DNA from: Chiloscyllium plagiosum
Lineage: Eukaryota
Length of the DNA stretch: 34,628 nt
Direction of reading: 5' to 3'
NCBI RefSeq assembly: GCF_004010195.1
Contig: NW_025214707.1
Location: forward strand, 5,317-39,944
Part shown: positions 1,135-34,628 of the stretch, piece after piece
Position numbering within the stretch: position 1 is the stretch's first letter
How the letters are laid out: the number at the start of each line of letters is the position of its first letter
The notes under the pieces: generated by a model
Databases searched by the model: none
What the model saw: the letters and a program-made list of their open reading frames with translations, nothing else
Told to the model about the DNA's origin: nothing
Position numbers and translations under genes: made by a program

Positions 1135-2250
1135 GGAACCATATCGTCAGAGTTGTACAGCACAGAAACAGACCCATCAATTCAACTTGTCCATGCCAAC
1201 CACAAATCTGAAATTAATCTAGTCTCCCTTTACAACTATTTGGCAAATATTCCTCTAAAACCATCCTACTCATGTACCTATCAAGATGTCTTTTAAATAT
1301 TGTAATTGTACCAGCCTCCACCACTTCCTCAGGCAACTCATTCCATACACACACCACCCCCTGCATTGAAAAGTTGCCCCTTAGGTCTCTTTTAAATCTT
1401 TCCCCTCTCACTTTAAACCTATGCCCTTTAGTTTTGGACTCCCATATCCCAGGGAAAAAAGAGTATTCACCATATCCATACCCCTCATGATTTTATAAAC
1501 CTTTATAAGGTCACCCCTCAGCCTCTGACGCTCCAGGGAAAACAGCCCCAGCCTATTCAACCTCTCCCTATAGCTCAAATCTTCCAACCCTGGCAACGTC
1601 CTTGTAAATCTTTTCTGAACCCTTTCAAGTTTAACACCATTCTTCATATAGCAGGGAGTCCAGCATTGCACGCAGTATTCCGAAAGTGGTCTAACCAATG
1701 TCCTGTACGGCTGCAACATGACCTCCCAACTCCTACATTCAATGCCCTGACCAATAAAGGCAAGCATACTACCCTTCACTATCTTGTCTTACCTGCAACT
1801 CCACTTTCAAGGAACCTGCACCCCGTTGTTTGGCAATACTCCATAGGAGTTGAGAGTGTGTTGCTGGAAAAGCACAGCAGGTCAGGCAGCGTCCGAGGAG
1901 CAGGAAAATTGACGTTTCGAGCCGGAGCCCTTCATCAGCCCTGATGAAGCACTCCGGCTCGAAACGTTGATTTTCCTGCTCCTCGGATGCTGCCTGACCT
2001 GCTGTGCCTTTCCAGCAACACACTCTCAACTCTGATCTCCAGCATCTGCAGCCCTCACTGTCTCCTAGTTGAATGCTCCATTGGACCCTTCCCTTAAGTG
2101 TGTAAGTCCTGCCGTGCTATGTCTTTCCAAAATACAACACCTTGTATTTATCTAAACTAAACTCCATCTGCCACTGCTCAGTCCATGTGATCAAAGTCCA
2201 GTTATACTCTGAGATTACCTTCTTCACTGTCCACTACAGCACCACTTACT
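1135..2250 (-). mobile_element. CR1 LINE 3' portion, interrupted by a palindromic insertion
   Basis: Minus ORFs 1408-1779 and 1214-1411 encode the CR1 ORF2 C-terminus (YRTLVRP..EYCVQ.W, LERVQKRFTR, RLRGDLI, WNELP). Confidence 0.93.
1849..2071. mobile_element. Penelope-pLTR-like palindromic element with hammerhead-like cores
   Basis: 92-bp inverted arms 1847-1938 / 1941-2032; CTGATGA...GAAACGT on both strands; imperfect 14-bp TSD 1835-1848 / 2072-2085. Confidence 0.8.
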
Positions 2251-11906: not shown

Positions 11907-12406
11907 NNNNNNNNNNNNNNNNNNNNNNNNNNNNNNNNNNNNNNNNNNNNNNNNNNNNNNNNNNNNNNNNNNNNNNNNNNNNNNNNNNNNNNNNNNNNNN
12001 NNNNNNNNNNNNNNNNNNNNNNNNNNNNNNNNNNNNNNNNNNNNNNNNNNNNNNNNNNNNNNNNNNNNNNNNNNNNNNNNNNNNNNNNNNNNNNNNNNNN
12101 NNNNNNNNNNNNNNNNNNNNNNNNNNNNNNNNNNNNNNNNNNNNNNNNNNNNNNNNNNNNNNNNNNNNNNNNNNNNNNNNNNNNNNNNNNNNNNNNNNNN
12201 NNNNNNNNNNNNNNNNNNNNNNNNNNNNNNNNNNNNNNNNNNNNNNNNNNNNNNNNNNNNNNNNNNNNNNNNNNNNNNNNNNNNNNNNNNNNNNNNNNNN
12301 NNNNNNNNNNNNNNNNNNNNNNNNNNNNNNNNNNNNNNNNNNNNNNNNNNNNNNNNNNNNNNNNNNNNNNNNNNNNNNNNNNNNNNNNNNNNNNNNNNNN
12401 NNNNNN
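11907..12406. other. Assembly gap (500 N)
   Basis: Run of N. Confidence 1.
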
Positions 12407-12629: not shown

Positions 12630-12780
12630 TCTGTAGACTCCCTGCAGTGTGGAAGCAGGACATTCAGTCCATTGAATCCACACCAACCCTCTGAAATCAA
12701 CCCGCCCCAACTAATTCCCCCCCCCACCCCCACCCTCACCCTATCCCTGTAACCCTGCATTTCCCATGGTTCATCAACAT
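12630..12780 (-). mobile_element. HE1-type SINE 3' part leading into a SINE-derived tandem array
   Basis: CCCTGCAGTGTGGAAGCAGG..CCCTATCCCTGTAACCCTGCATTTCCCATGG matches 2800-2915. Confidence 0.8.
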
Positions 12781-13497
12781 AACCTGCACATCCCTGGACA
12801 TTATGGGACAAAATAGCATGGTCAATCCACCCTAACCTGCACATCCCTGGGCACTGTGGGACAATTTAGCTTGGCCAATCCCACCCTAACCTGCACATCC
12901 CTGGGCACTATGGGATAATTTAGCACGGCCAATCCACCCTAACCTGCACATCCCTGGGAACTATGGGACAATTTAGCTTGGCCAATCCATACTAACCTGC
13001 ACATCCCTGGACACTATGGGACAATTTAGCTTGGCCAATCCCACCCTAACCTGCACATCCCTGGGCACTATGGGACAATTTAGCATGGCCAATCCACCCT
13101 AACCTGCACATTCCTAGACACTATGGGACAATTTAGCATGGTCAATCCACCCTAACCTGCACATCCCTGGGCACTGTGGGACAATTTAGCTTGGCCAATC
13201 CCACCCTAACCTGCACATCCCTGGGCACTGTGGGACAATTTAGCATGGCCAATCCACCCTAACCTACACATCCCTGGGCACTATGGGGCAATTTAGCACA
13301 ACCAATCCACCCTAACCTGTACATTCCTGGGCAATATGGGGCAATTTAGCATGGCCAATCCACCCTAACCTGTACATTCCTGGGCACTATGGGACAATTT
13401 AGCATAACCAATCCACTCTAACCTGCACATCCCTGGGCACTATGGGGCAATTTAGCATGGCCAATCCACCCTAACCTGCACATCCCTGGACACTATG
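12779..13497. repeat. 53/54-bp tandem array (14 units) derived from an HE1 internal segment
   Basis: AACCTGCACA or a one-base variant at 12781, 12834, 12888, 12941, 12994, 13048, 13101, 13154, 13208, 13261, 13314, 13367, 13420, 13473. Confidence 0.95.
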
Positions 13498-15124: not shown

Positions 15125-15282
15125 GGTTCAGGCAGCATCCAAGGAGCAGTAAAATCGACGTTTCGGGCCTGAAACGTCGATTTTCCTGCTCCTTGGATGC
15201 TGCCTGACCTGCTGTGCTTTTCCAGCACCACTCTAATCTAGACTCTGGTTTCCAGCATCTGCACTCCTTGTTTTTAACCTAA
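15125..15282. mobile_element. Penelope-pLTR-like palindromic element, collapsed centre
   Basis: CAGGCAGCATCCAAGGAGCAG..GACGTTTC / GAAACGTC..CTGCTCCTTGGATGCTGCCTG arms; TSD GTTCAGACTGA 15114-15124 / 15283-15293. Confidence 0.82.
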
Positions 15283-19559: not shown

Positions 19560-19955
19560 TGACTGACCATGGTTAATCGACACCAACTGACCCGAGTTAA
19601 CCTACACTCACTGACACTGATTAATCCACACTGACTGGCTCTGGTTAATCTACACTCACTGACACTCATTAATCCACCCTGATTGACCCTGGTTAACCTA
19701 CACTCTCTGACCTGGTAAATCCATACTTACTGATTCTGGTTAATCTACACTGACTGCCCCTTGTTAAACTGCACTGACTCACACTGGTTAGTTTATATTT
19801 ACTGACACTTGTTACTCAACAGAGGATAAGACAAGTTAATCTATACTGGCTGACCCAGGTTAAACTAGACCTTTGTTAGTCTACATTAACTGAGTCTGGT
19901 TAGTCTATGCTGATTGATCCTTGTCAGTCTGTACCAACTGAAACTGGCTAGTCTT
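19560..19955. repeat. Degenerate left part of the 24-bp minisatellite
   Basis: Repeated variants of ACTGACCCTGGTTAATCTACACT. Confidence 0.8.
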
Positions 19956-20717: not shown

Positions 20718-21030
20718 CTTGAGTGTTGTTGGATCTGCCCCCATCCAGGGCAAGTGGGGAGTATTCCCTCACATTCCTGACTTGTGCCTTGTAGATGGTG
20801 GGACAGGCTTTGGGGAGACAGGTGGTGAGTTACTCACTGCAGGATTCTCAGCCTCTGACCTGCTCTTGTAGCCACTGTATTTATGTGGTAAGTCCAGTCA
20901 GTTTCTGGTCAATGGTAACGCCCAGGATGTTGACATTGGGGGATTCAGTAAAGGAACATCATTAAATATCAAGAAACAAAGGTTAGATTGTCTCCTGTTG
21001 GAGATGGTGATAGCCTGGCATTTCTGTGGT

Positions 21031-21120
21031 TCCTGAAGAAGGGCTTATGCCCGAAACGTCGATTCTCCTTCTCCTTGGATGCTGCCTGACCTGCTGCGCT
21101 TTTCCAGCAACACATTTTTA
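21031..21120 (+). mobile_element. Single-arm Penelope-pLTR-like fragment with an intact hammerhead-like core
   Basis: CTGAAGA-A-GGGC-TTAT-GCCC-GAAACGTC at 21033-21060. Confidence 0.8.
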
Positions 21121-21707: not shown

Positions 21708-21925
21708 CATTGGAAAAGTGTGGCTCTGGAAAAGCACAGCAGGTCGGGCAGCATTTGAGGAGCAAGAGTATGATGTTTCAGGCCTGAGCCCTTCATTCCT
21801 GATGAAGAGCGTATGCTCGAAATGTCAACTCTCCTGCTCCTCGGATGCTGCCTGACCTGCTGTGCTTTTCCAGCACCACACATTTTGACTCTGACTCTTC
21901 AGCATCTGTAGTCCTCACTTTCTCT
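21708..21925. mobile_element. Penelope-pLTR-like palindromic element
   Basis: Inverted arms; CTGATGA-A-GAGC-GTAT-GCTC-GAAATGTC from 21799; imperfect TSD CAGGACATGCA 21697-21707 / CAGAACATACA 21926-21936. Confidence 0.8.
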
Positions 21926-22102: not shown

Positions 22103-23958
22103 GATTAATCCACTCTAACTAACCCTGGCTAGTCTGTTTTACCTAAACCAGGTTAGTTTATACTGATGGATATTGGTTGGTCCAAAATGACTGACCCTGG
22201 TTACATTATACTGACTGACCCTTATCAGTTTAAATTAAGTGAACCCAGTCAATCTATACTAACTGACACTATATTGACTCACCTTGGTCATTCTATACTG
22301 ACTGAGCCTAGTTAATCTATACTGACTGACCCTTATTACTGTCTATTAACTGACCCCGGTCAGTCTGTACTGACTGGCCCTGGTTAGTCTATATTCACTG
22401 ACACTGGTTACTCTATACTGACTGAGCCTAGTCAGTTTATACTGACTAACCCAGGTTACTCGATACTAACTGACCCTGGTTACTGTATACTGATGGATCC
22501 AGGTTACTCTGTACTGACTGACCCTGGTTACTCTATACTGACTGACCTGGTTCCTGATCCTAGCTGACCCAGGTTACTCTGTACTGACTGACCCTGGTTA
22601 CTCTATACTGACTGACCCAGGTTACTCTGTACTAACTGACCCTGGTTACTCTGTACTAACTGACCCTGATTACTCTATACTGACTAACCCAGCATACTCT
22701 GTACTAACTGACCCTGGTTACTCTGTACTGATTGACCCTGGTTACTCTATACTGACTGACCCAGGTTACTGTACACTAACTGACCCTGGTTACTCTATAC
22801 TAACTGACCCTGGTTCCTGTATATTGACTGACCCTGGTTACTCTATACTGATTGACGCAGGTTACTGTATAGTAACTGGCCCTGATTAATCTATACTAAC
22901 TGACCCTGGTTACTCTATGCTGATTGACCCAGGTTACTGTATACTAACTGACCCTGATTACTCTATACTGACTGACCCTGGTTACTCTGTACTGACTGAC
23001 CCTGGTTACTCTATACTGACTGACCCTGGTTACTCTGTACTGGCTCACCCAGGTTACTCTGTACTAACTGACCCTGGTTACTCTATACTGACTGACCCTG
23101 GTTACGCTGTACTGGCTCACCCAGGTTACTCTGTACTAACTGACCCTGGTTACTCTATACTGACTGACCCAGGTTACTGTATACTAACTGACCCTGGTTA
23201 CTGTATACTAACTGACCCTAGTTCCTGTATATTGACTGACCCTGGTTACTCTATACTGATTGACCCAGGTTACTGTATACTAACTGGCCCTGGTTAATCT
23301 ATAGTAACTGACCCTGGTTACTCTATGCTGATTGACCCAGGTTACTGTATACTAACTGACCCTGATTACTCTATACTAACTGACCCTGGTTACTCTGTAC
23401 TGGCTCACCCAGGTTACTCTGTACTAACTGACCCTGGTTACTCTGTACTGACTGACCCTGGTTACTGTATACTGACTGACCCTGGTTACTCTGTACTGGC
23501 TCACCCAGGTTACTCTGTAGTAACTGACCCTGGTTGCTGTATACTGACTGACCCTGGTTACTATGTACTGACTGACCCTGGTTACCCGATCCTAGCTGAC
23601 CCTGGTTACTCTGTACTGACTGACCCTGGTTACTCTGTACTGGCTCACTCAGGTTACTCTGTACTAACTGACACTGGTTACTCTATACTGACTGACCCTG
23701 ATTACTCTATACTAACTGACCCTGGTTACTCTGTACTGGCTCACCCTGGTTACTGTATACTAACTGACCCTGGTTACCCGATCCTAGCTGACCCTGGTTA
23801 CTCTGTACTGACTGACCCTGGTTACTCTGTACTGGCTCACCCAGGTTACTCGATCCTAACTGACCCTGGTTACTATGTACTGGCTCACCCAGGTTACTGT
23901 ATACTGACTGACCCTGGTTACTGTATACTGACTGACCTTGGTCAGTCTATACTAACTG
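22103..23958. repeat. 24-bp minisatellite (roughly 75 units)
   Basis: Unit ACTGACCCTGGTTACTCTATACTG, increasingly homogeneous rightwards. Confidence 0.97.
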
Positions 23959-24414: not shown

Positions 24415-24525
24415 AGTTCTGAGGAAGGGTTACTGGACCCTGTAATGTTAACACTGCTTTCTCTCCACGCGGGCTGCCAGACCTGCTGAGTTTCTCCCGC
24501 AGTTTCTGTTTTTGTTTCTGTTTCC
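24415..24525 (+). mobile_element. Second pLTR-like family fragment with a degenerate hammerhead-like core
   Basis: CTGAGGA-A-GGGT-TACTGG-ACCC..GTTAAC..CTGCCAGACCTGCTGAGTTT. Confidence 0.6.
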
Positions 24526-24599
24526 GATGTAGTTTGTGCCAGATCAGATCCTTCACCTCATTACCACCTACACCCCCACCCCCACCGCCCTGTGATGAA

Positions 24600-25140
24600 G
24601 GTCAGGGCTTCAGCCTGGGTAGTTGGATTTGCCAACCTAGCTGGTATCTGCCATGTGCAGGGTGATGATGGACTGTACCCACATCGCACTGAGACACCCA
24701 TACCATATCGCAGCTGGGATCATCACTGGAAAAGGGTTCCATTCCTCCAGCATGTGTTCACCAAGAGCAGATCTTCAAAAGTCTGTGCCAGGTACCCTGT
24801 GAGCTGGCATGATGCCCAGATCCTTGAGAACTCTCTTGTCCCCACTAAAAACTGGATGCCTTATAAGGATGGTTACCCTGAGACTAGAGCTACCCTGTGT
24901 AACTCCATCACACAACAGCAGGCCACTTTTCCACCAGATGGTGGTGCAGACAGTGGCCTTCCTGAACAAGAGGTTCTGATCATTGGCTTAGGCTGCGGGG
25001 AGTGGTACAGTGTGGACAGAGTGTACCACAAAAGCCTGGCATGCTGTGCTCTGCGCAACCGGAGCACGCAAAGACGGGACGTGATGGACGCTGAAAGAGC
25101 TGCGAGAGCAGTTTTACGAGGAGCAGGATGAGGATGAGGG
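24600..25140 (+). pseudogene. Frameshifted PIF/Harbinger (HARBI1-like DDE) transposase fossil
   Basis: Across frames: GFANLAGICHVQG / MDCTHIAL..KGFHS / VCARYPVSWHDAQILENS / DGYP / QTVAFLNKRF / YSVDRV..LACCALRN, then an acidic GAGGAT tract, in the canonical order. Confidence 0.8.
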
Positions 25141-26648: not shown

Positions 26649-26919
26649 ACCTCAGCCCTACACTTCTTGAAGTTCCCGGGAATCTATTACACAAAAGGTC
26701 TAATGGAAAGCAAATTGTTGTTGTAATGCAATAGGCAGTGAGAGTGGTGGATCAGCCAAAAGCTGGAAAAGCACTGTGTCAATTTATAAGCTGATTTGCC
26801 AGTTCCATCCTAAATTTATGGTACTTATAAAGGTGACTGTGTATATTCTATTACTAACAGTTCGCTTTTATTATCCCACTGAAGCAAACGTGCACACTAA
26901 AACCCTGAGAGTGGCAGCT

Positions 26920-29910
26920 AGAATGGTCTTCACCTGAGCCAGAGGGGTACCAATATCCTGGGGGGGCAAATTTGCGAATGGTCTCCGGGTGTGTTTAAAC
27001 TAAGTCAGCAGGTGGATGGAAACCTAAATTGTAGCTCGAGTGTAGAGGAGGTTGAGAGTAGGGAGGTCCAAAATAAGGTTTCAGGGTCGCAAGAGGGCAC
27101 TGGCAAGCAGGAAGGTGGCTTGAAGTGTGTCTACTTCAATGCCAGGAGCATTCGTATAAGGTGGGTGAACCTGCAGTCTGGGTTGGTACCTGGGACTTCG
27201 ATGTTGTGGCCATTTCGGAGACATGGGGAGAGCAGGGACAGGAATAATTATTGCAGGTTTTGGGATTTAGATGTTTCAATAAGAGCAGAGAAGATAGTAA
27301 AAGAGAGGGAGGTGTGGCATTGTTAGTCAAGGACAGTATTACGGTGGCAGAAAGGATGTTTGAGGACTTGTCTACTGAGGTAGTATAGGCTGAGGTTAGA
27401 AACTGGAAAGGAGAGGAGAGGACACCCTGTTGGGAGTTTTCTATCAGCCTCCGAATAGATCCAGAGATGTAGAGGAAAGGATAGCAAAGATTATTCTCGA
27501 TAGGAGTGAGAGTAACAGGGTAGTTGTTATGGGGGACTTCAATTTACCAAGTATTGACTGGGAATATTATAGTTTGAGTACTTTAGGTGGGTCAGGTTTT
27601 GTCCAGTATAAGCAGAAAGGTTTCCTGACACAGTATGTAGACAAGCCAACAAGGGGTGAGGCCACATTAGATTTGGTACTGGGTAATGGTGTTAGTACAG
27701 GTGTTAGATTTGGAGGTAGGTGAGCACTTTGGTGATAGTGACCACAATTCGGTTATGTTTACTTTAGCGATGGAAAGGGATAGGTATATACCACAGGACA
27801 AGAGTTATTGCTGGGGGAAAGGCAATTATGAAGTGATTTGGCAGGATTTAGGATGCATAGGATGGGGAAGGAAACTGCAGGGGATGGGCACAATTGAAAT
27901 GTGGAGCTTATTCAAGGAACAGCTACTGCGTGTCCTTGATAAGTATGTACCTGTCAGGCAGGGAGGAAGTGGTCGAGTGAAGGAGCCGTGGTTTACTAAA
28001 GACGTTGAATCTCTTGTCAAGAGGAAGAAGGCGGCTTATGTTAGGATGAGATGTGAAGGCTCAGTTTGAGTGTTACAGGGTAGCCAGGAAGGGACCCAAA
28101 GAGAGAGCTAAGGAGAGCCAGGAGGGGACATGAGAAGCCTTTGGCAGGTTGGATCAAGAAAAACCCTGAAACTTTCTATAGGTAGATCAGGAATAAAAGA
28201 ATGACTAAGAGTAGGGTTAGGGCCAATCAAGGATAGTAGTGGGAAGTTGTGCGTGGAGTCTGAGGAGATAGGGGAAGCGCTAAATGAATATTGTTCGTCA
28301 GTATTTACACTGGAAAGAGACAATGTTGTTGAGGAGGATACTGAGATACAGGCTACTAGACTAGACAGGATTGAGATTTACAAGGAGGAGGTGTTAGCAA
28401 TTCTGGAAAGTGTGAAAATAGATAAGTCCCCTGGGCCAGATGGGATTTATCCCAGGATTCTCTGGGAAGCCAGGGAGGAGACTGTAGAGCCTTTGGCTTT
28501 GATCTCTATGTCATCACTGTCTACAGGAACAGTGCCAGAAGACTGGACGATAGCAAATGTTGTCCCCTTGCTCAAGAAGGGGAGTAGAGACAACCCTGGT
28601 AATGATAGACCAGTGAGCCTTACTTTGGGTGTGGGTAAAGTGTTGGAAAAGATTATAAGAGATAGGATTTACAATCATCTTGATAGAAATAAGTTGATTA
28701 GGGATAGTCAACACGGCTTTGTGAAGGGTAGGTCTTGCCTCACAAACCTTATTCAGTTCTTTGAGAAGGTGACCAAACAGGTGGATGAGGGTAAAGCAGT
28801 TGATGTGGTGTATGTGGATTTCAGTAAGGCATTTGATCAAGTTCCCCATGATAGGCTACTGAACAAAATACAGAGGCATGGGATTGAGGGTGATTTAGCG
28901 GTTTGGATCAGAAATTGGCTAGCTGAAAGAAGACAGAGGGTGGTGGTTGATGGGAAATGTTCATCCTGGAGTTCAGTTATGAGCAGTTATAAGGATCTGT
29001 TTTGGGTCTACTGTTTTGTTATTTTTATAAATAACCTATATGAGGGCGTAAAAGGATAGGTTAGTAAATTTGCAGATGACACTAAGGTCGGTAGAGTTGT
29101 GGATAGCGTTGAAGGATGTTGTAGGTTACAGAGGGACATAGATAAGCTGCAGAGCTGGGCTGAGAGGTGGCAAATGGAGTTTAATACAGAAAAGTGTGAG
29201 GTGATTCACTTTGGCAGGAGCAACAGGAATGCAGAGTACTGGGCTAATGGTAAGATTCTCAGTAGTGTGGATGAACAGAGAGATCTCGGTGTTCATGTAC
29301 ATAGATCCCTGAAAGTTGCCACCCAAGTTGAGAGGGTTGTTAAGGAAGCATACGGTGTGTTAGCTTTTATTGGGAGAGGGATTGAGTTTTGGAACCACAA
29401 GGTCATGCTGCAGCTGGACAAAACTCTGGTGTGGCCGCACTTGGAGTATTGCGTACAGTTCTGGTCACCGCATTATAGGAAGGATGTGGAAGCTTTGGAA
29501 AGGGCTCAGAGGAGATTTACTCGGATGATGCCTGAGAGTGAAGGAAGGTCTTAGGAGGAAAGGCTGAGGGACTTGAGGCTGATTTTGTTAGAGAGAAGAA
29601 TGTTGAGAGATGACTTAATTGGGACATATAAAATAATCAGAGGGTTGGATAGGGTGGACAGGGAGAGCCTTTTTCCTCGGATGGTGATGGCTCGCACGAG
29701 AGGACATAGCTTCAGACTGAGGAGTGATAGATACAGGACAGATGTCAGAGGTGGTTTCTTTACTCAGTGAGTAGTAGGGGCGTGGAATGCACTGCCTGCA
29801 ACAGTAGTAGACTCGCCAACTTTAAGTGCATTTAAATGGTCATTGTATGGACTTATGGATGAAAATGGAATAGATGGGCTTCACAGGATCGAGGGCCTGT
29901 ACTGTGCTGT
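26920..29910 (+). mobile_element. Long CR1 LINE: ORF1 end plus disrupted ORF2 (APE endonuclease and RT)
   Basis: GLHLSQRGTNILGG (ORF1 esterase-type end); CVYFNARSI, VMGDFNLP, LDLVL, SDHN (APE); KSPGPDGI, QHGFVKGRSCLTNL, DFSKAFD, KFADDTK (RT); multiple stops and frameshifts. Confidence 0.95.
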
Positions 29911-30720: not shown

Positions 30721-31305
30721 ATCCCCCAAGACAAAGTATCACTAGATAAGACACTCTAACTCACAACACGAACCTCTGCCCTGCCTCTCCATGACAGGGA
30801 GGTGGACAAGGTCAGAAGTCACACACCACACCAGCTTATCATCCAACTGGGTTATTTGAAATCACAGTCATGTGACCCCACATTTCCAACACAATAGTTC
30901 TGTCCTGCTCCTTGGATTTTATCGAAAAAGCTGCAGTTATTGAAATGAGAAGGAGGTGGAAAGGAGTGGGGGGCATGGATAGAAGAGCAGAGAAAAACAC
31001 TTGACCCAAAAGCAGTGCTGGCAATCCGCCTGTTCCATTCAGAAACTATGGGGAGGCCTGGGAACCTTACAGCTGCAAGCAGAATTGTTACAGCCGGGGC
31101 CCCAGTCGACTCCATAAAATCCACCCCTCTGATCTGGGACGGTCTCGTTCAAATAATTAAGTGAGCAATCCACCTCTGGGAAAGGATTGATTGTCTGCTC
31201 CCATCCCACTCCCATGAGATATTCAAGATGATAAAAGTTCAGGATAAAATCGACCTGGAGCTGGCGCTTCCTCTCCTGCGGCATTCTAGGGTGAGAGGTT
31301 ATAGT

Positions 31306-31554
31306 TGAAAATGTGTTGCTGGAAAAGCGCAGCAGGACATTGAAAATGTGTTGCTGGAAAAGCGCAGCAGGTCAGGCAGCATCCAAGGAACAGGAGACAG
31401 GTGTCTGCTGGACACACTTTCCTCATTCCTGAAGAAGGGCTTATGCCCGAAACGTCGATTCTCCTGTTCCTTGGATGTTGCCTGACCTGCTGCGCTTTCG
31501 CAGCAACACATTTTCAGCTCTGATCTCCAGCATCTGCAGCCCTCGCTTTCTCTT
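31306..31554. mobile_element. Penelope-pLTR-like palindromic element with an intact hammerhead-like core
   Basis: Perfect 14-bp TSD TGAGAGGTTATAGT 31292-31305 / 31555-31568; core CTGAAGA-A-GGGC-TTAT-GCCC-GAAACGTC at 31429-31456. Confidence 0.87.
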
Positions 31555-31715
31555 TGAGAGGTTATAGTCTTTGGATACAGGGGAGCAAATTTAAAACAGA
31601 GCTAAGGAGAAACTGCTTCTCCCAGAGGGTTGTGAATCTGTGGAATTCACTCCCCCAAAGTGCAGAGGATGCTGGGACAGTGAGTCACTTTAAGGAGGAG
31701 TTAGATAGATGTTTA

Positions 31716-31980
31716 ATTAGATTCTCTCCAGGGTGGAAACAGGTCCTTCAGCCTAATAATTCCACACCAACCCTCCAAAGAGCAGCCTACTCCCCTATTT
31801 ACCCCTAACACTATGGGCAATTTAACATGGCCATTTTACCTAAGCTGCACATCTTTGGACTGTGGGAGAAAACACACACACAGAGAATGTGCAAACTCTA
31901 CACAGACAGTCACCCAAGGCTATAATTGAACCCAGGTCCCTGGTGCTGTGAGGTAGCAGTACTAACTACTGAGCTACCCA
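31716..31980 (-). mobile_element. HE1-type SINE
   Basis: GGGCAATTTAACATGGCC..CTGCACATCTTTGGACTGTGGGAG..GAACCCAGGTCCCTGGTGCTGTGAGG. Confidence 0.88.
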
Positions 31981-32331
31981 TCAGTAATGGGTTGAAGGGA
32001 TATAGAGAGAAGGCAGGAAAATGGGGATGAGGAGCATATCAGTCATGTTCAAAGGTGGAGCAGAGTCAATGGGCTGAATGGCCTAATTTGAGTCCGATAT
32101 CTTAGAACTTATGAATCCCCTGCCCCTGTCCTGCCTCTGATCAAACTGGGAGTGGCTATCTTCAACTTGGATTGGGATGGCATGGGACCTTTAAAAGACT
32201 TGAACAGCCCAACCATCCCAGACTCACCTGGTTTTGGGATTGAAATTACCCCACTGTCTATTCACCTCTCAATTTCCATCAGCAGAGTGAGGGCTATGTG
32301 GGATTTCTGAGCAGCTGATATGGAGAAGACA

Positions 32332-32717
32332 GCCTAGTGGTATTATCACTAGAATATTAATCCAGAGATTAGATCAGAGTGGTGCTGGAAAAGCACAGCA
32401 GGTCGGGCAGCATCCGAGGAGCAGGAAAATCGACGATTTGGGCAAAAGCCCTTCATCAGGAATAGAGGGACCTTGGTAATGTTCTGGGTTAAAATCCTGC
32501 CACGGCAGATGGTGGAATTTGGAATCAATATTAAAAAAAAGGCCATTTGTTGATTGTCAAAAAAAAGTCCACCTGTTTACTGATGCTGTTTTAAGAAGGA
32601 AATCTGCTGTCCTTTACCTGGCCTGGCTGGCATGTGACTCCAGACCCACAGACAATGTGACTTACTCTTAACTGCCCTCTGGCCTAGCCAGCGATGCCCA
32701 CATGCTGTGGGAAAAAA
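32332..32717 (+). mobile_element. tRNA-headed SINE of the second family, interrupted by a pLTR arm
   Basis: GCCTAGTGG (A-box-like), GGGTTAAAATCC (B-box-like), body shared with 14835-15000, tail GGCCTAGCCAGCGATGCCCACAT. Confidence 0.75.
32369..32463 (-). mobile_element. Single-arm pLTR-like fragment
   Basis: Reverse reads CTGATGA-A-GGGC-TTTT-GCCC-AAATCGTC (GAAA mutated). Confidence 0.78.
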
Positions 32718-33361: not shown

Positions 33362-34628
33362 TGAGAGTCCGAGAGATGTACAGCATGGAAACAGACCCTT
33401 CGGTCCAACCCGTCCATGCCGACCAGATATCCCAATCCAATCTAGTCCCACCTGCCAGCACCCAGCCCATTTCCCTCCAAACCCTTCCTATTCATATACC
33501 CATTCAAATGCCTCTTAAATGTTGTAATTGTACCAGCCTTCATCACTTCCTCTGGCAGCTCATTCCATACACGTACTACCTTCTACGTGAAAAAGTTGCC
33601 CCTCTTTTCTATCTTTCCCCTCTCACCCTAAACCTATGCCCTCGAGTTCTGGACTCCCTGACCCCAGGGAAAAGACTTTGTCTATTTATCCTATCCATGC
33701 CCCTCATAATTTTGTAAACCTCGATAAGGTCACCCCTCAGCCTCCGATGCTCCAGGGAAAACAGCCCCAGCCTGTTCAGCCTCTCCCTGTAGCTCAGATC
33801 CTCCAACCCAGGCAACATCCTTGTAAATCTTTTCTGGACCCTTTCAAGTTTCACAACATCTTTCCGATAGGAAGGAGACCAGAATTGTGTACAGCATTCC
33901 AATAGTGGCCTAACCAATGTCCTGTACAGCCACAATATGACTTCCCAACTCCTGTACTCAATACTCTGACCAATAAAGGAAAGCATACCAAACGCCTTCT
34001 TCACTATCCTATCTACCAGCGACTCCACTTTCATGGAGCTATGAACCTGCACTCCAAGGTCTCTTTGTTCAGCAACACTCCCCAGGACCTTACCATTAAG
34101 TGTATAAGTCCTGCTAAGATTTGCTTTCCCAAAATGCAGCACCTCGCATTTATCTGAATTAAACTCCATCTGTCACTTCTCAGCCCATTGGCCCACCTGG
34201 TCCAGATCCTGTTGTAATCTGAGGTGACCCTCTTCGCTGTCCACTACACCTCCAATTTTGGTGTCATCTGCAAACTTACTAACTGTACCTCTCATGCTCG
34301 CATCCAAATCATTTATATAAATGACAAAAAATAGAGGGCCCAGCACCGATCCTTGTGATCCACTGGTCATAGGCCTCCAGTCTGAAAAACAACCCTCCAC
34401 CACACTACCCTCTGTCTTCTACCTTTGAGCCAGTTCTGTATCCAAATGGCTAGTTCTCCCTGTATTCCATGAAATCTAACCTTGCTAACCAGTCTCCCAT
34501 GGGGAACCTTGTTGAACGCCTTACTGAAGTCCATATAGATCGCACCTACTGCTCTGCCCTCATCAATCGTCTTCAAAAAAACTCAATCAAGTTTGTGAGA
34601 CATGATTTCCCATGCACAAAGCCATGTT
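33362..34628 (-). mobile_element. CR1/HER1-type LINE (RT to 3' end), runs off window end
   Basis: YMDFSKAFNKVPH, QGSVLGP..YINDL, KFADDTK, LERVQKRFTR motifs in frameshifted minus ORFs. Confidence 0.95.

Follow-up and report, generated by a model that had tools for sequence, protein, structure and literature searches.

The 34,628-nt stretch of the Chiloscyllium plagiosum genome analyzed here (the window) contains short palindromic units whose two arms meet in the neighborhood of a hammerhead-like core. This arrangement raises the question of what moves: whether the palindrome is itself a mobile unit, bounded by its ribozyme and copied as a whole, or whether its mirror half arises at the insertion site. 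As set out below, the units are very probably dead, 5′-truncated insertions of endonuclease-positive (EN+) Penelope-like elements (PLEs), derived from the end that bears the hammerhead (pLTR plus tail), with the mirror half built anew at each insertion.

The focal unit is an insertion into a LINE fragment

Positions within the arms are numbered from hammerhead C3 as +1, which places the predicted cut after +28. The focal unit consists of two 92-nt arms, 93% complementary and 2 nt apart, followed by an unpaired tail of 36 nt (Table 1); the initial annotation had described the same inverted arms and spacer, with a tail of about 35 nt. The C of CTGATGA is the start of both arms, and the center of symmetry thus falls at −1/+1, the 5′ edge of the core. 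The idea that the unit is folded back at the ribozyme does not hold if the cleavage site is meant, because that site lies 28 nt downstream of the center. The entire unit is predicted to fold as one hairpin of −181 kcal/mol, which would bury the hammerhead motif.

The unit is flanked by the 14-nt target site duplication (TSD) with two mismatches that had been reported for it. When TSDs were compared with end-anchored random pairs (n = 2,000 per insertion), 6 of 2,000 pairs scored as high as the focal one. A LINE paralog at 33372–34257, which includes a weak reverse transcriptase (RT) match, is collinear with the host fragment and holds the target site a single time; this site matches the two TSD copies at 11 of 14 and 9 of 14 positions. 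Because the paralog is collinear and has the site only once, the focal unit is a true insertion with target duplication.

Table 1. Positions of the focal unit, its insertion site, and the related copies in the window
Feature	Position	Strand	Description
Left TSD copy, focal unit	1835..1848	+	Last 2 nt overlap the arm
Inverted arm, focal unit	1847..1938	-	+1 to +92 from hammerhead C3; minimal hammerhead intact
Minimal type-I hammerhead motif	1911..1938	-	Core, helix II, GAAA, palindromic helix III, cleavage triplet; descriptor as in PMC4209133
Spacer (center of symmetry), focal unit	1939..1940	.	2 nt
Sense arm, focal unit	1941..2032	+	Two substitutions break helix II
Unpaired tail, focal unit	2033..2068	+	36 nt; outside the symmetry; ends in CTAG, the fixed 3′ terminus of the family
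Right TSD copy, focal unit	2072..2085	+	Pairs with 1835..1848
Host LINE fragment split by the focal unit	1149..2247	-	79% / 75% identity to 33372-34037 / 34085-34257
Empty site, paralogous LINE copy	34074..34087	+	Site present once
Palindromic copy 2	15125..15282	+	40-nt arms, spacer 0, center +17, inverted arm only to +60, tail present, TSD 11-15 nt
Palindromic copy 3	21708..21925	+	Old; arms 78% alike, center in 5-bp hairpin over core start, weak 11-nt TSD
Palindromic copy 4	31306..31554	+	Inverted arm +32 to +88, 7-nt filler, sense arm from ~31405 (~-24), perfect 14-nt TSD
Single arm	21030..21119	+	-3 to +86, without tail; minimal hammerhead intact; TSD not significant (113/2000)
Single arm	32369..32463	-	About -4 to ~+92, without tail; hammerhead decayed; TSD not significant (754/2000)

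Related copies share their outer ends and differ in their centers

Arm sequence was found in six insertions in the window, namely four palindromes and two single arms. The three sister palindromes have the architecture of the focal unit, as had been noted, and the single arms do stop near the core, starting 3–4 nt before it. The tail, 36–38 nt long, is present in all four palindromes and missing from both single arms; TSDs were significant in three of the four palindromes and in neither single arm. Among the host duplications claimed for the sister copies, those of copy 2 (11 nt without mismatch, or 15 nt with one) and copy 4 (14 nt, perfect) were each matched by 0 of 2,000 random pairs, whereas that of copy 3 (11 nt with two mismatches) is weak (113 of 2,000).

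The four centers of symmetry all differ, and the arms range from 40 to 92 nt. Placement of the center at the CUGAUGA core proved right for two of the four palindromes (1939 in the focal unit and ~21799 in copy 3), but the center of copy 2 lies at +17, in the 3′ strand of helix II, where both of its arms begin, and that of copy 4 is a 62-nt asymmetric region. The center of copy 3 falls within a 5-bp hairpin (21792–21806), as snap-back would leave. Since all four centers differ, the mirror half was probably built per insertion, rather than copied as part of a unit.

The outer ends of the window copies, by contrast with the variable inner ends, fall at two places, ~+86 to +92 and +124 to +128. 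The first of these is the end of three of the four inverted arms and of both single arms.

Two further observations concern individual copies. An origin of the arms of copy 3 from two subfamilies was considered, given that they are only 78% alike and differ in their helix II loops, and was dropped; the other diagnostic bases are common to both arms, and the TSD is equally decayed. In copy 4, an exact duplication (31305–31371) repeats the initial 35 nt of the inverted arm, through either priming that was aborted and begun again or a tandem duplication at a later time.

The arms match the minimal hammerhead of Penelope-like elements

The arms carry matches to the descriptor of the minimal type-I hammerhead of PLEs. 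The descriptor has four matches in the whole window, all inside these arms, and is matched by four of the seven arms that span the core. Metazoan PLE hammerheads are characterized by a CUGANGA core, an unpaired base before helix II, a G10.1–C11.1 pair, a palindromic 15.2–16.2, and the absence of loop 3 (Cervera and de la Pena 2014, PMC4209133), and all these features recur here. The window arms differ in having a helix II of 4 bp and a helix I of ~2 bp. In the metazoan survey, most motifs were single ones from truncated PLEs, and opposite-strand pairs lay 100–700 bp apart, whereas the opposed pairs in the window abut (PMC4209133). Sharks are not named in the available part of that survey.

Rfam models gave no match at the gathering score in the window, and chance matches only in 31280–32520. 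Covariation in helix II across the seven arms was no better than in shuffled sequences (206 of 500). A scan of viral contigs for the hammerhead pattern returned no matches; two matches in metagenome contigs, with GC-rich flanks unrelated to the unit, were read as chance.

Ends and joints of the family in public sequencing runs

The sense arm of copy 4 (31400–31560, C3 at 31429) served as the reference, at 80% likeness, for a comparison with 4 of the 24 public runs listed among four coded organisms with part of the locus. The records placed were 3,139 reads in run X21 and 60,917, 47,112, and 5,128 contigs in runs X4, X12, and X16, respectively; X4 and X12 are DNA runs. These counts point to a very high abundance of the family in organisms A and C.

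The 3′ end is fixed and sharp, with 847, 790, 802, and 141 records leaving the reference at 31552 in the four runs, and 158 reads of run X21 leave at the inner end, 31514. Among the 24 of 763 loose ends listed, heads with unrelated flanks (contig agreement of ~0.3) peak at 31424–31426 (367 and 289 records in X4; 277, 395, and 256 in X12), and a second peak lies at 31434 (284 records in X4). The boundary at 31424–31426 is sharp in all four runs compared. Upstream past 31405, 178, 196, 113, and 8 records continue with an agreement of 0.83–0.87, indicating that the arm belongs to a longer element.

In the 15 of 46 opposite-strand joints listed, heads at 31425–31443 are joined to partners at 31436, 31486, 31510, and 31518–31519, the last group corresponding to an inverted piece made of tail alone. 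These joints, which agree with head-to-head copies, have depths of 8–66, and the 12 of 61 listed joints with letters between have depths of 24–107, against summed depths in the millions; the distributions of joints and ends are seen at their peaks, contig depth is not copy number, and perfect palindromes may break contigs. No spot where many molecules begin or end was found in the runs compared on 31400–31560. The public reads derive from many genomic copies, probably lying in introns or flanks, and so are not evidence that the unit is transcribed alone.

A sharp head hot spot would be expected equally from a short non-autonomous master, that is, a single arm of ~130 nt running from −4 to the tail end, with its own start and mobilized in trans by a PLE enzyme in the manner of a SINE, the palindromes still being built at insertion. 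Consistent with such a master, the boundary is sharp in all runs compared and coincides with an initiator-like heptamer at 31423–31429; the consensus matches 1.2% of window positions, and its coincidence with the heads was noticed post hoc. The depth of the RNA run over 31406–31411 is about one tenth of that over the arm, and non-autonomous PLE derivatives do exist, in Chlamys and as animal retrozymes. However, the same boundary follows from run-off on an autonomous transcript, and it is common to at least three sequence variants in the window. The upstream continuation also speaks against such a master, the low depth there being partly an edge and subfamily effect, as does the lack of any pile-up of molecule starts or ends in the runs compared. 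We consider a SINE-like master improbable.

The palindrome as a hypothetical mobile unit

In its strong form, the earlier idea would make the whole palindrome mobile, as a hairpin RNA that the ribozyme delimits and processes and that is copied in this form. Two of the four centers do lie at the core start. In addition, a few contigs (two to three per run) join the outer 3′ end at 31552 to the inner 3′ end at 31520 on opposite strands, a configuration expected of whole palindromic units in tandem or of a circle junction; in one of these records, the two places are separated by an additional stretch resembling the tail. On the other hand, the palindromes share neither a center nor an arm length, and no junction dominates among the joints listed. 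The predicted hairpin would sequester the hammerhead, and each strand of the unit has one sense motif only, yet minimal hammerheads need dimers (PMC4209133); moreover, the center is ~28 nt away from the cleavage site. Mobility of the whole palindrome is therefore very unlikely. The proposal of a distinct, ribozyme-bounded, non-autonomous family likewise was not supported, in view of the differing centers, the low depths of the best-supported joints listed (8–107, against summed depths in the millions), the upstream continuation in some copies, a head boundary that is not the cleavage site, and an architecture that is the published PLE pattern.

Cut-and-paste MITEs or foldback DNA transposons, with which long inverted repeats, small size, and high copy number would agree, can be dismissed with near certainty, given the 36–38-nt unpaired tail that lies outside the symmetry at one terminus in place of terminal inverted repeats at both ends, TSDs that are long and variable (11–15 nt) rather than short and fixed, arm lengths from 40 to 92 nt, the existence of single arms, and the PLE-type hammerhead at the center. 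Retrotransposition, which the initial annotation had favored over cut-and-paste movement, was upheld by the variable TSDs, the fixed 3′ end, and the variable inner ends.

Relationship to Penelope-like elements

A Penelope-type origin, also proposed at the outset, gained support from the minimal hammerhead, the inverted copy, and the tail. The window copies show a minimal hammerhead in the terminal repeat (four of seven arms), an inverted, 5′-truncated head-to-head copy (four of six insertions), a one-end tail within the 30–40-nt range, a fixed 3′ end, variable 5′ truncation, and TSDs of variable length. Assignment to the PLEs is based on architecture, motif, and geometry, and the clade name Poseidon on geometry alone.

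Insertions of EN+ PLEs are 5′-truncated, often have an inverted truncated copy at the 5′ end, and carry a 30–40-nt tail at one end (PMC3846280, PMC8557442; also PMC8969392); their TSDs are 8–10 nt long, and palindromes at the head-to-head junctions have been ascribed to self-priming (PMC8557442, PMC3846280). The units described here resemble these insertions (Arkhipova et al. 2013, PMC3846280; Craig et al. 2021, PMC8557442) in the inverted 5′-truncated copy, the one-sided tail, the variable TSD, the junction palindromes, the heavy 5′ truncation, and the occurrence of solo pLTRs. They differ from the published ORF-bearing copies in that both halves are stubs of 40–130 nt that reach no ORF, and in their TSDs of 11–15 nt. 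The pattern is one already known, that of published PLE insertions in miniature.

The Poseidon element of Anolis carolinensis (PAc; Frangieh et al. 2024, PMC11167929) is also close to these units in its geometry. Its protein nicks and extends both target strands in vitro, and its RT starts at two internal sites that bound the tail, with a preferred start 111–118 nt after the start of helix II; shortening the RNA at its 5′ end gives a shorter product, and hammerhead mutants leave the product unchanged (PMC11167929). In the window, the 3′ end lies 116–120 nt after the start of helix II. As in PAc, the hammerhead is ~115 nt upstream of the 3′ end and two 3′ ends bound the tail; in PAc, both target strands can prime. 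The cut site follows the start of helix II by 20 nt here versus 26 nt in PAc, and the main text of the PAc study describes no palindromic stubs like those found here (PMC11167929). The PAc ORF starts at helix II, whereas here each of the three sense frames is interrupted before the end of the tail in at least one of the four tail-bearing copies.

Protein searches with peptides of these three frames, as queries of only 31–43 aa, found no relative; the sole match, P0001, was rejected as a repetitive chance match. Screening of the 117 stop-free frames of at least 72 aa in the window, outside the tandem array at 22–24 kb, gave no GIY-YIG match, and stubs of this kind would not carry that ORF. The RT and endonuclease matches in the window belong to LINE fragments with an exonuclease/endonuclease/phosphatase domain.

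Non-LTR retrozymes, known as PLE-derived tandems from one cartilaginous fish, are likewise non-coding and hammerhead-bearing (Li, Clavereau and Pollet 2026, bioRxiv 10.64898/2026.07.22.740005). The units of retrozymes are arranged head to tail in tandem, each with its own hammerhead, whereas the copies here are head-to-head pairs or single arms, and no head-to-tail array of this type occurs in the window. In the literature covered by title or abstract start, mostly outside subscription papers, we found no description of such stubs in sharks; one paper that matched Penelope, hammerhead ribozyme, and shark (PMC6155905) was set aside, “shark” denoting a fold shape in its available text.

Proposed formation of the stubs at insertion

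The observed TSDs suggest that the element nuclease, putatively that of an EN+ PLE, would first make staggered nicks 11–15 nt apart. RT would then start inside the element RNA at the outer site (+124 to +128) or the inner site (+86 to +92); these are the two observed 3′ ends, and their interpretation as RT starts is modeled on the anole element. The resulting cDNA would be short and would usually end 3–4 nt before the core, most likely at the 5′ end of the RNA. The head hot spot is an observation, and it lies ~30 nt from the cleavage site; a run to the RNA 5′ end is the cause that we infer for it. On the simplest reading, RT primes within the pLTR RNA and runs ~130 nt to the RNA 5′ end or stops earlier, and short stubs would therefore be the default product. 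Ribozyme cleavage would not be needed on this route.

The second arm may have been made when the other target strand primed synthesis at the inner site, followed by joining of the two cDNA heads, a route for which we see an even chance. Such second-strand priming agrees with the in vitro data and with the inner end that the copies share. Somewhat less probably, the second arm was made by snap-back of the first cDNA, with which the hairpin center of copy 3 agrees, as does the shortness of the inverted arm in copy 2. That arm stops at +60 and not at the inner site, a point against the scheme proposed here.

The head hot spot also coincides with ATT, noticed post hoc; ATT is the preferred cut motif of the anole Poseidon nuclease (PMC11167929). 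In Drosophila Penelope, the promoter lies inside the pLTR (PMC2377424).

A possible footprint of hammerhead cleavage

The stub junctions could conceivably record two RNA 5′ ends formed in vivo, one from a start before the core (−4/−3) and one from the hammerhead cleavage site (+28/+29), although we regard this as rather unlikely. Positions 31456–31459, at or just after the predicted cut, are linked to a head at 31425/31426 in 7 of the 12 listed joints with letters between (61 in total; orientation not stated), and in copy 4 the inverted arm ends 3 nt past the predicted cut, at the equivalent of 31460. Alternatively, joints at +28/+29 may be caused by a 4-nt microhomology (a near-match) in helix I, in the same register. 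No loose-end peak was present at the cut site among the 24 of 763 loose ends listed, and the available text of the anole study reports no reads ending at the hammerhead cut site (PMC11167929).

If a cut-site peak held genome-wide, self-cleaved PLE RNA would be an RT template in vivo, and the two arms could derive from two different RNAs. This would answer whether PLE hammerheads act in transposition, for which the anole in vitro work was negative. As a class, the stubs matter little. In annotations of shark genomes, they could be mislabeled as MITEs or as repeats of unknown type. Being so numerous, they provide a natural data set on the route to the inverted copy (second-strand priming versus snap-back) and on whether hammerhead cleavage shapes PLE templates in vivo.

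Other features of the window

The fixed 3′ terminus of the family (2052–2068 and 31538–31556) is a pyrimidine run ending in AG and resembles a splice acceptor; a pyrimidine run and AG also occur in the family consensus immediately 5′ of 31405. The pLTRs of PLEs can hold introns (PMC2377424).

Elsewhere in the window, an assembly gap of 500 N occupies 11907–12406. A 213-codon stop-free frame at 24490–25131 has no Pfam match and is possibly the antisense of a decayed retroelement. A decayed LINE at 26900–29800 retains endonuclease (27400–27720) and RT (28205–29551) matches, with stops and frameshifts. A tandem array at 12780–13497 (period of 53, 13.5 copies, 90% matches) is built from part of the SINE-like repeat that is dispersed across the window. 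Two related 24-nt minisatellites, at 22269–23958 and 19560–19867, lie on opposite strands in 70.5 and 12.9 copies, respectively; the longer one contains long stop-free frames of an 8-residue repeat, probably a chance property of its unit.
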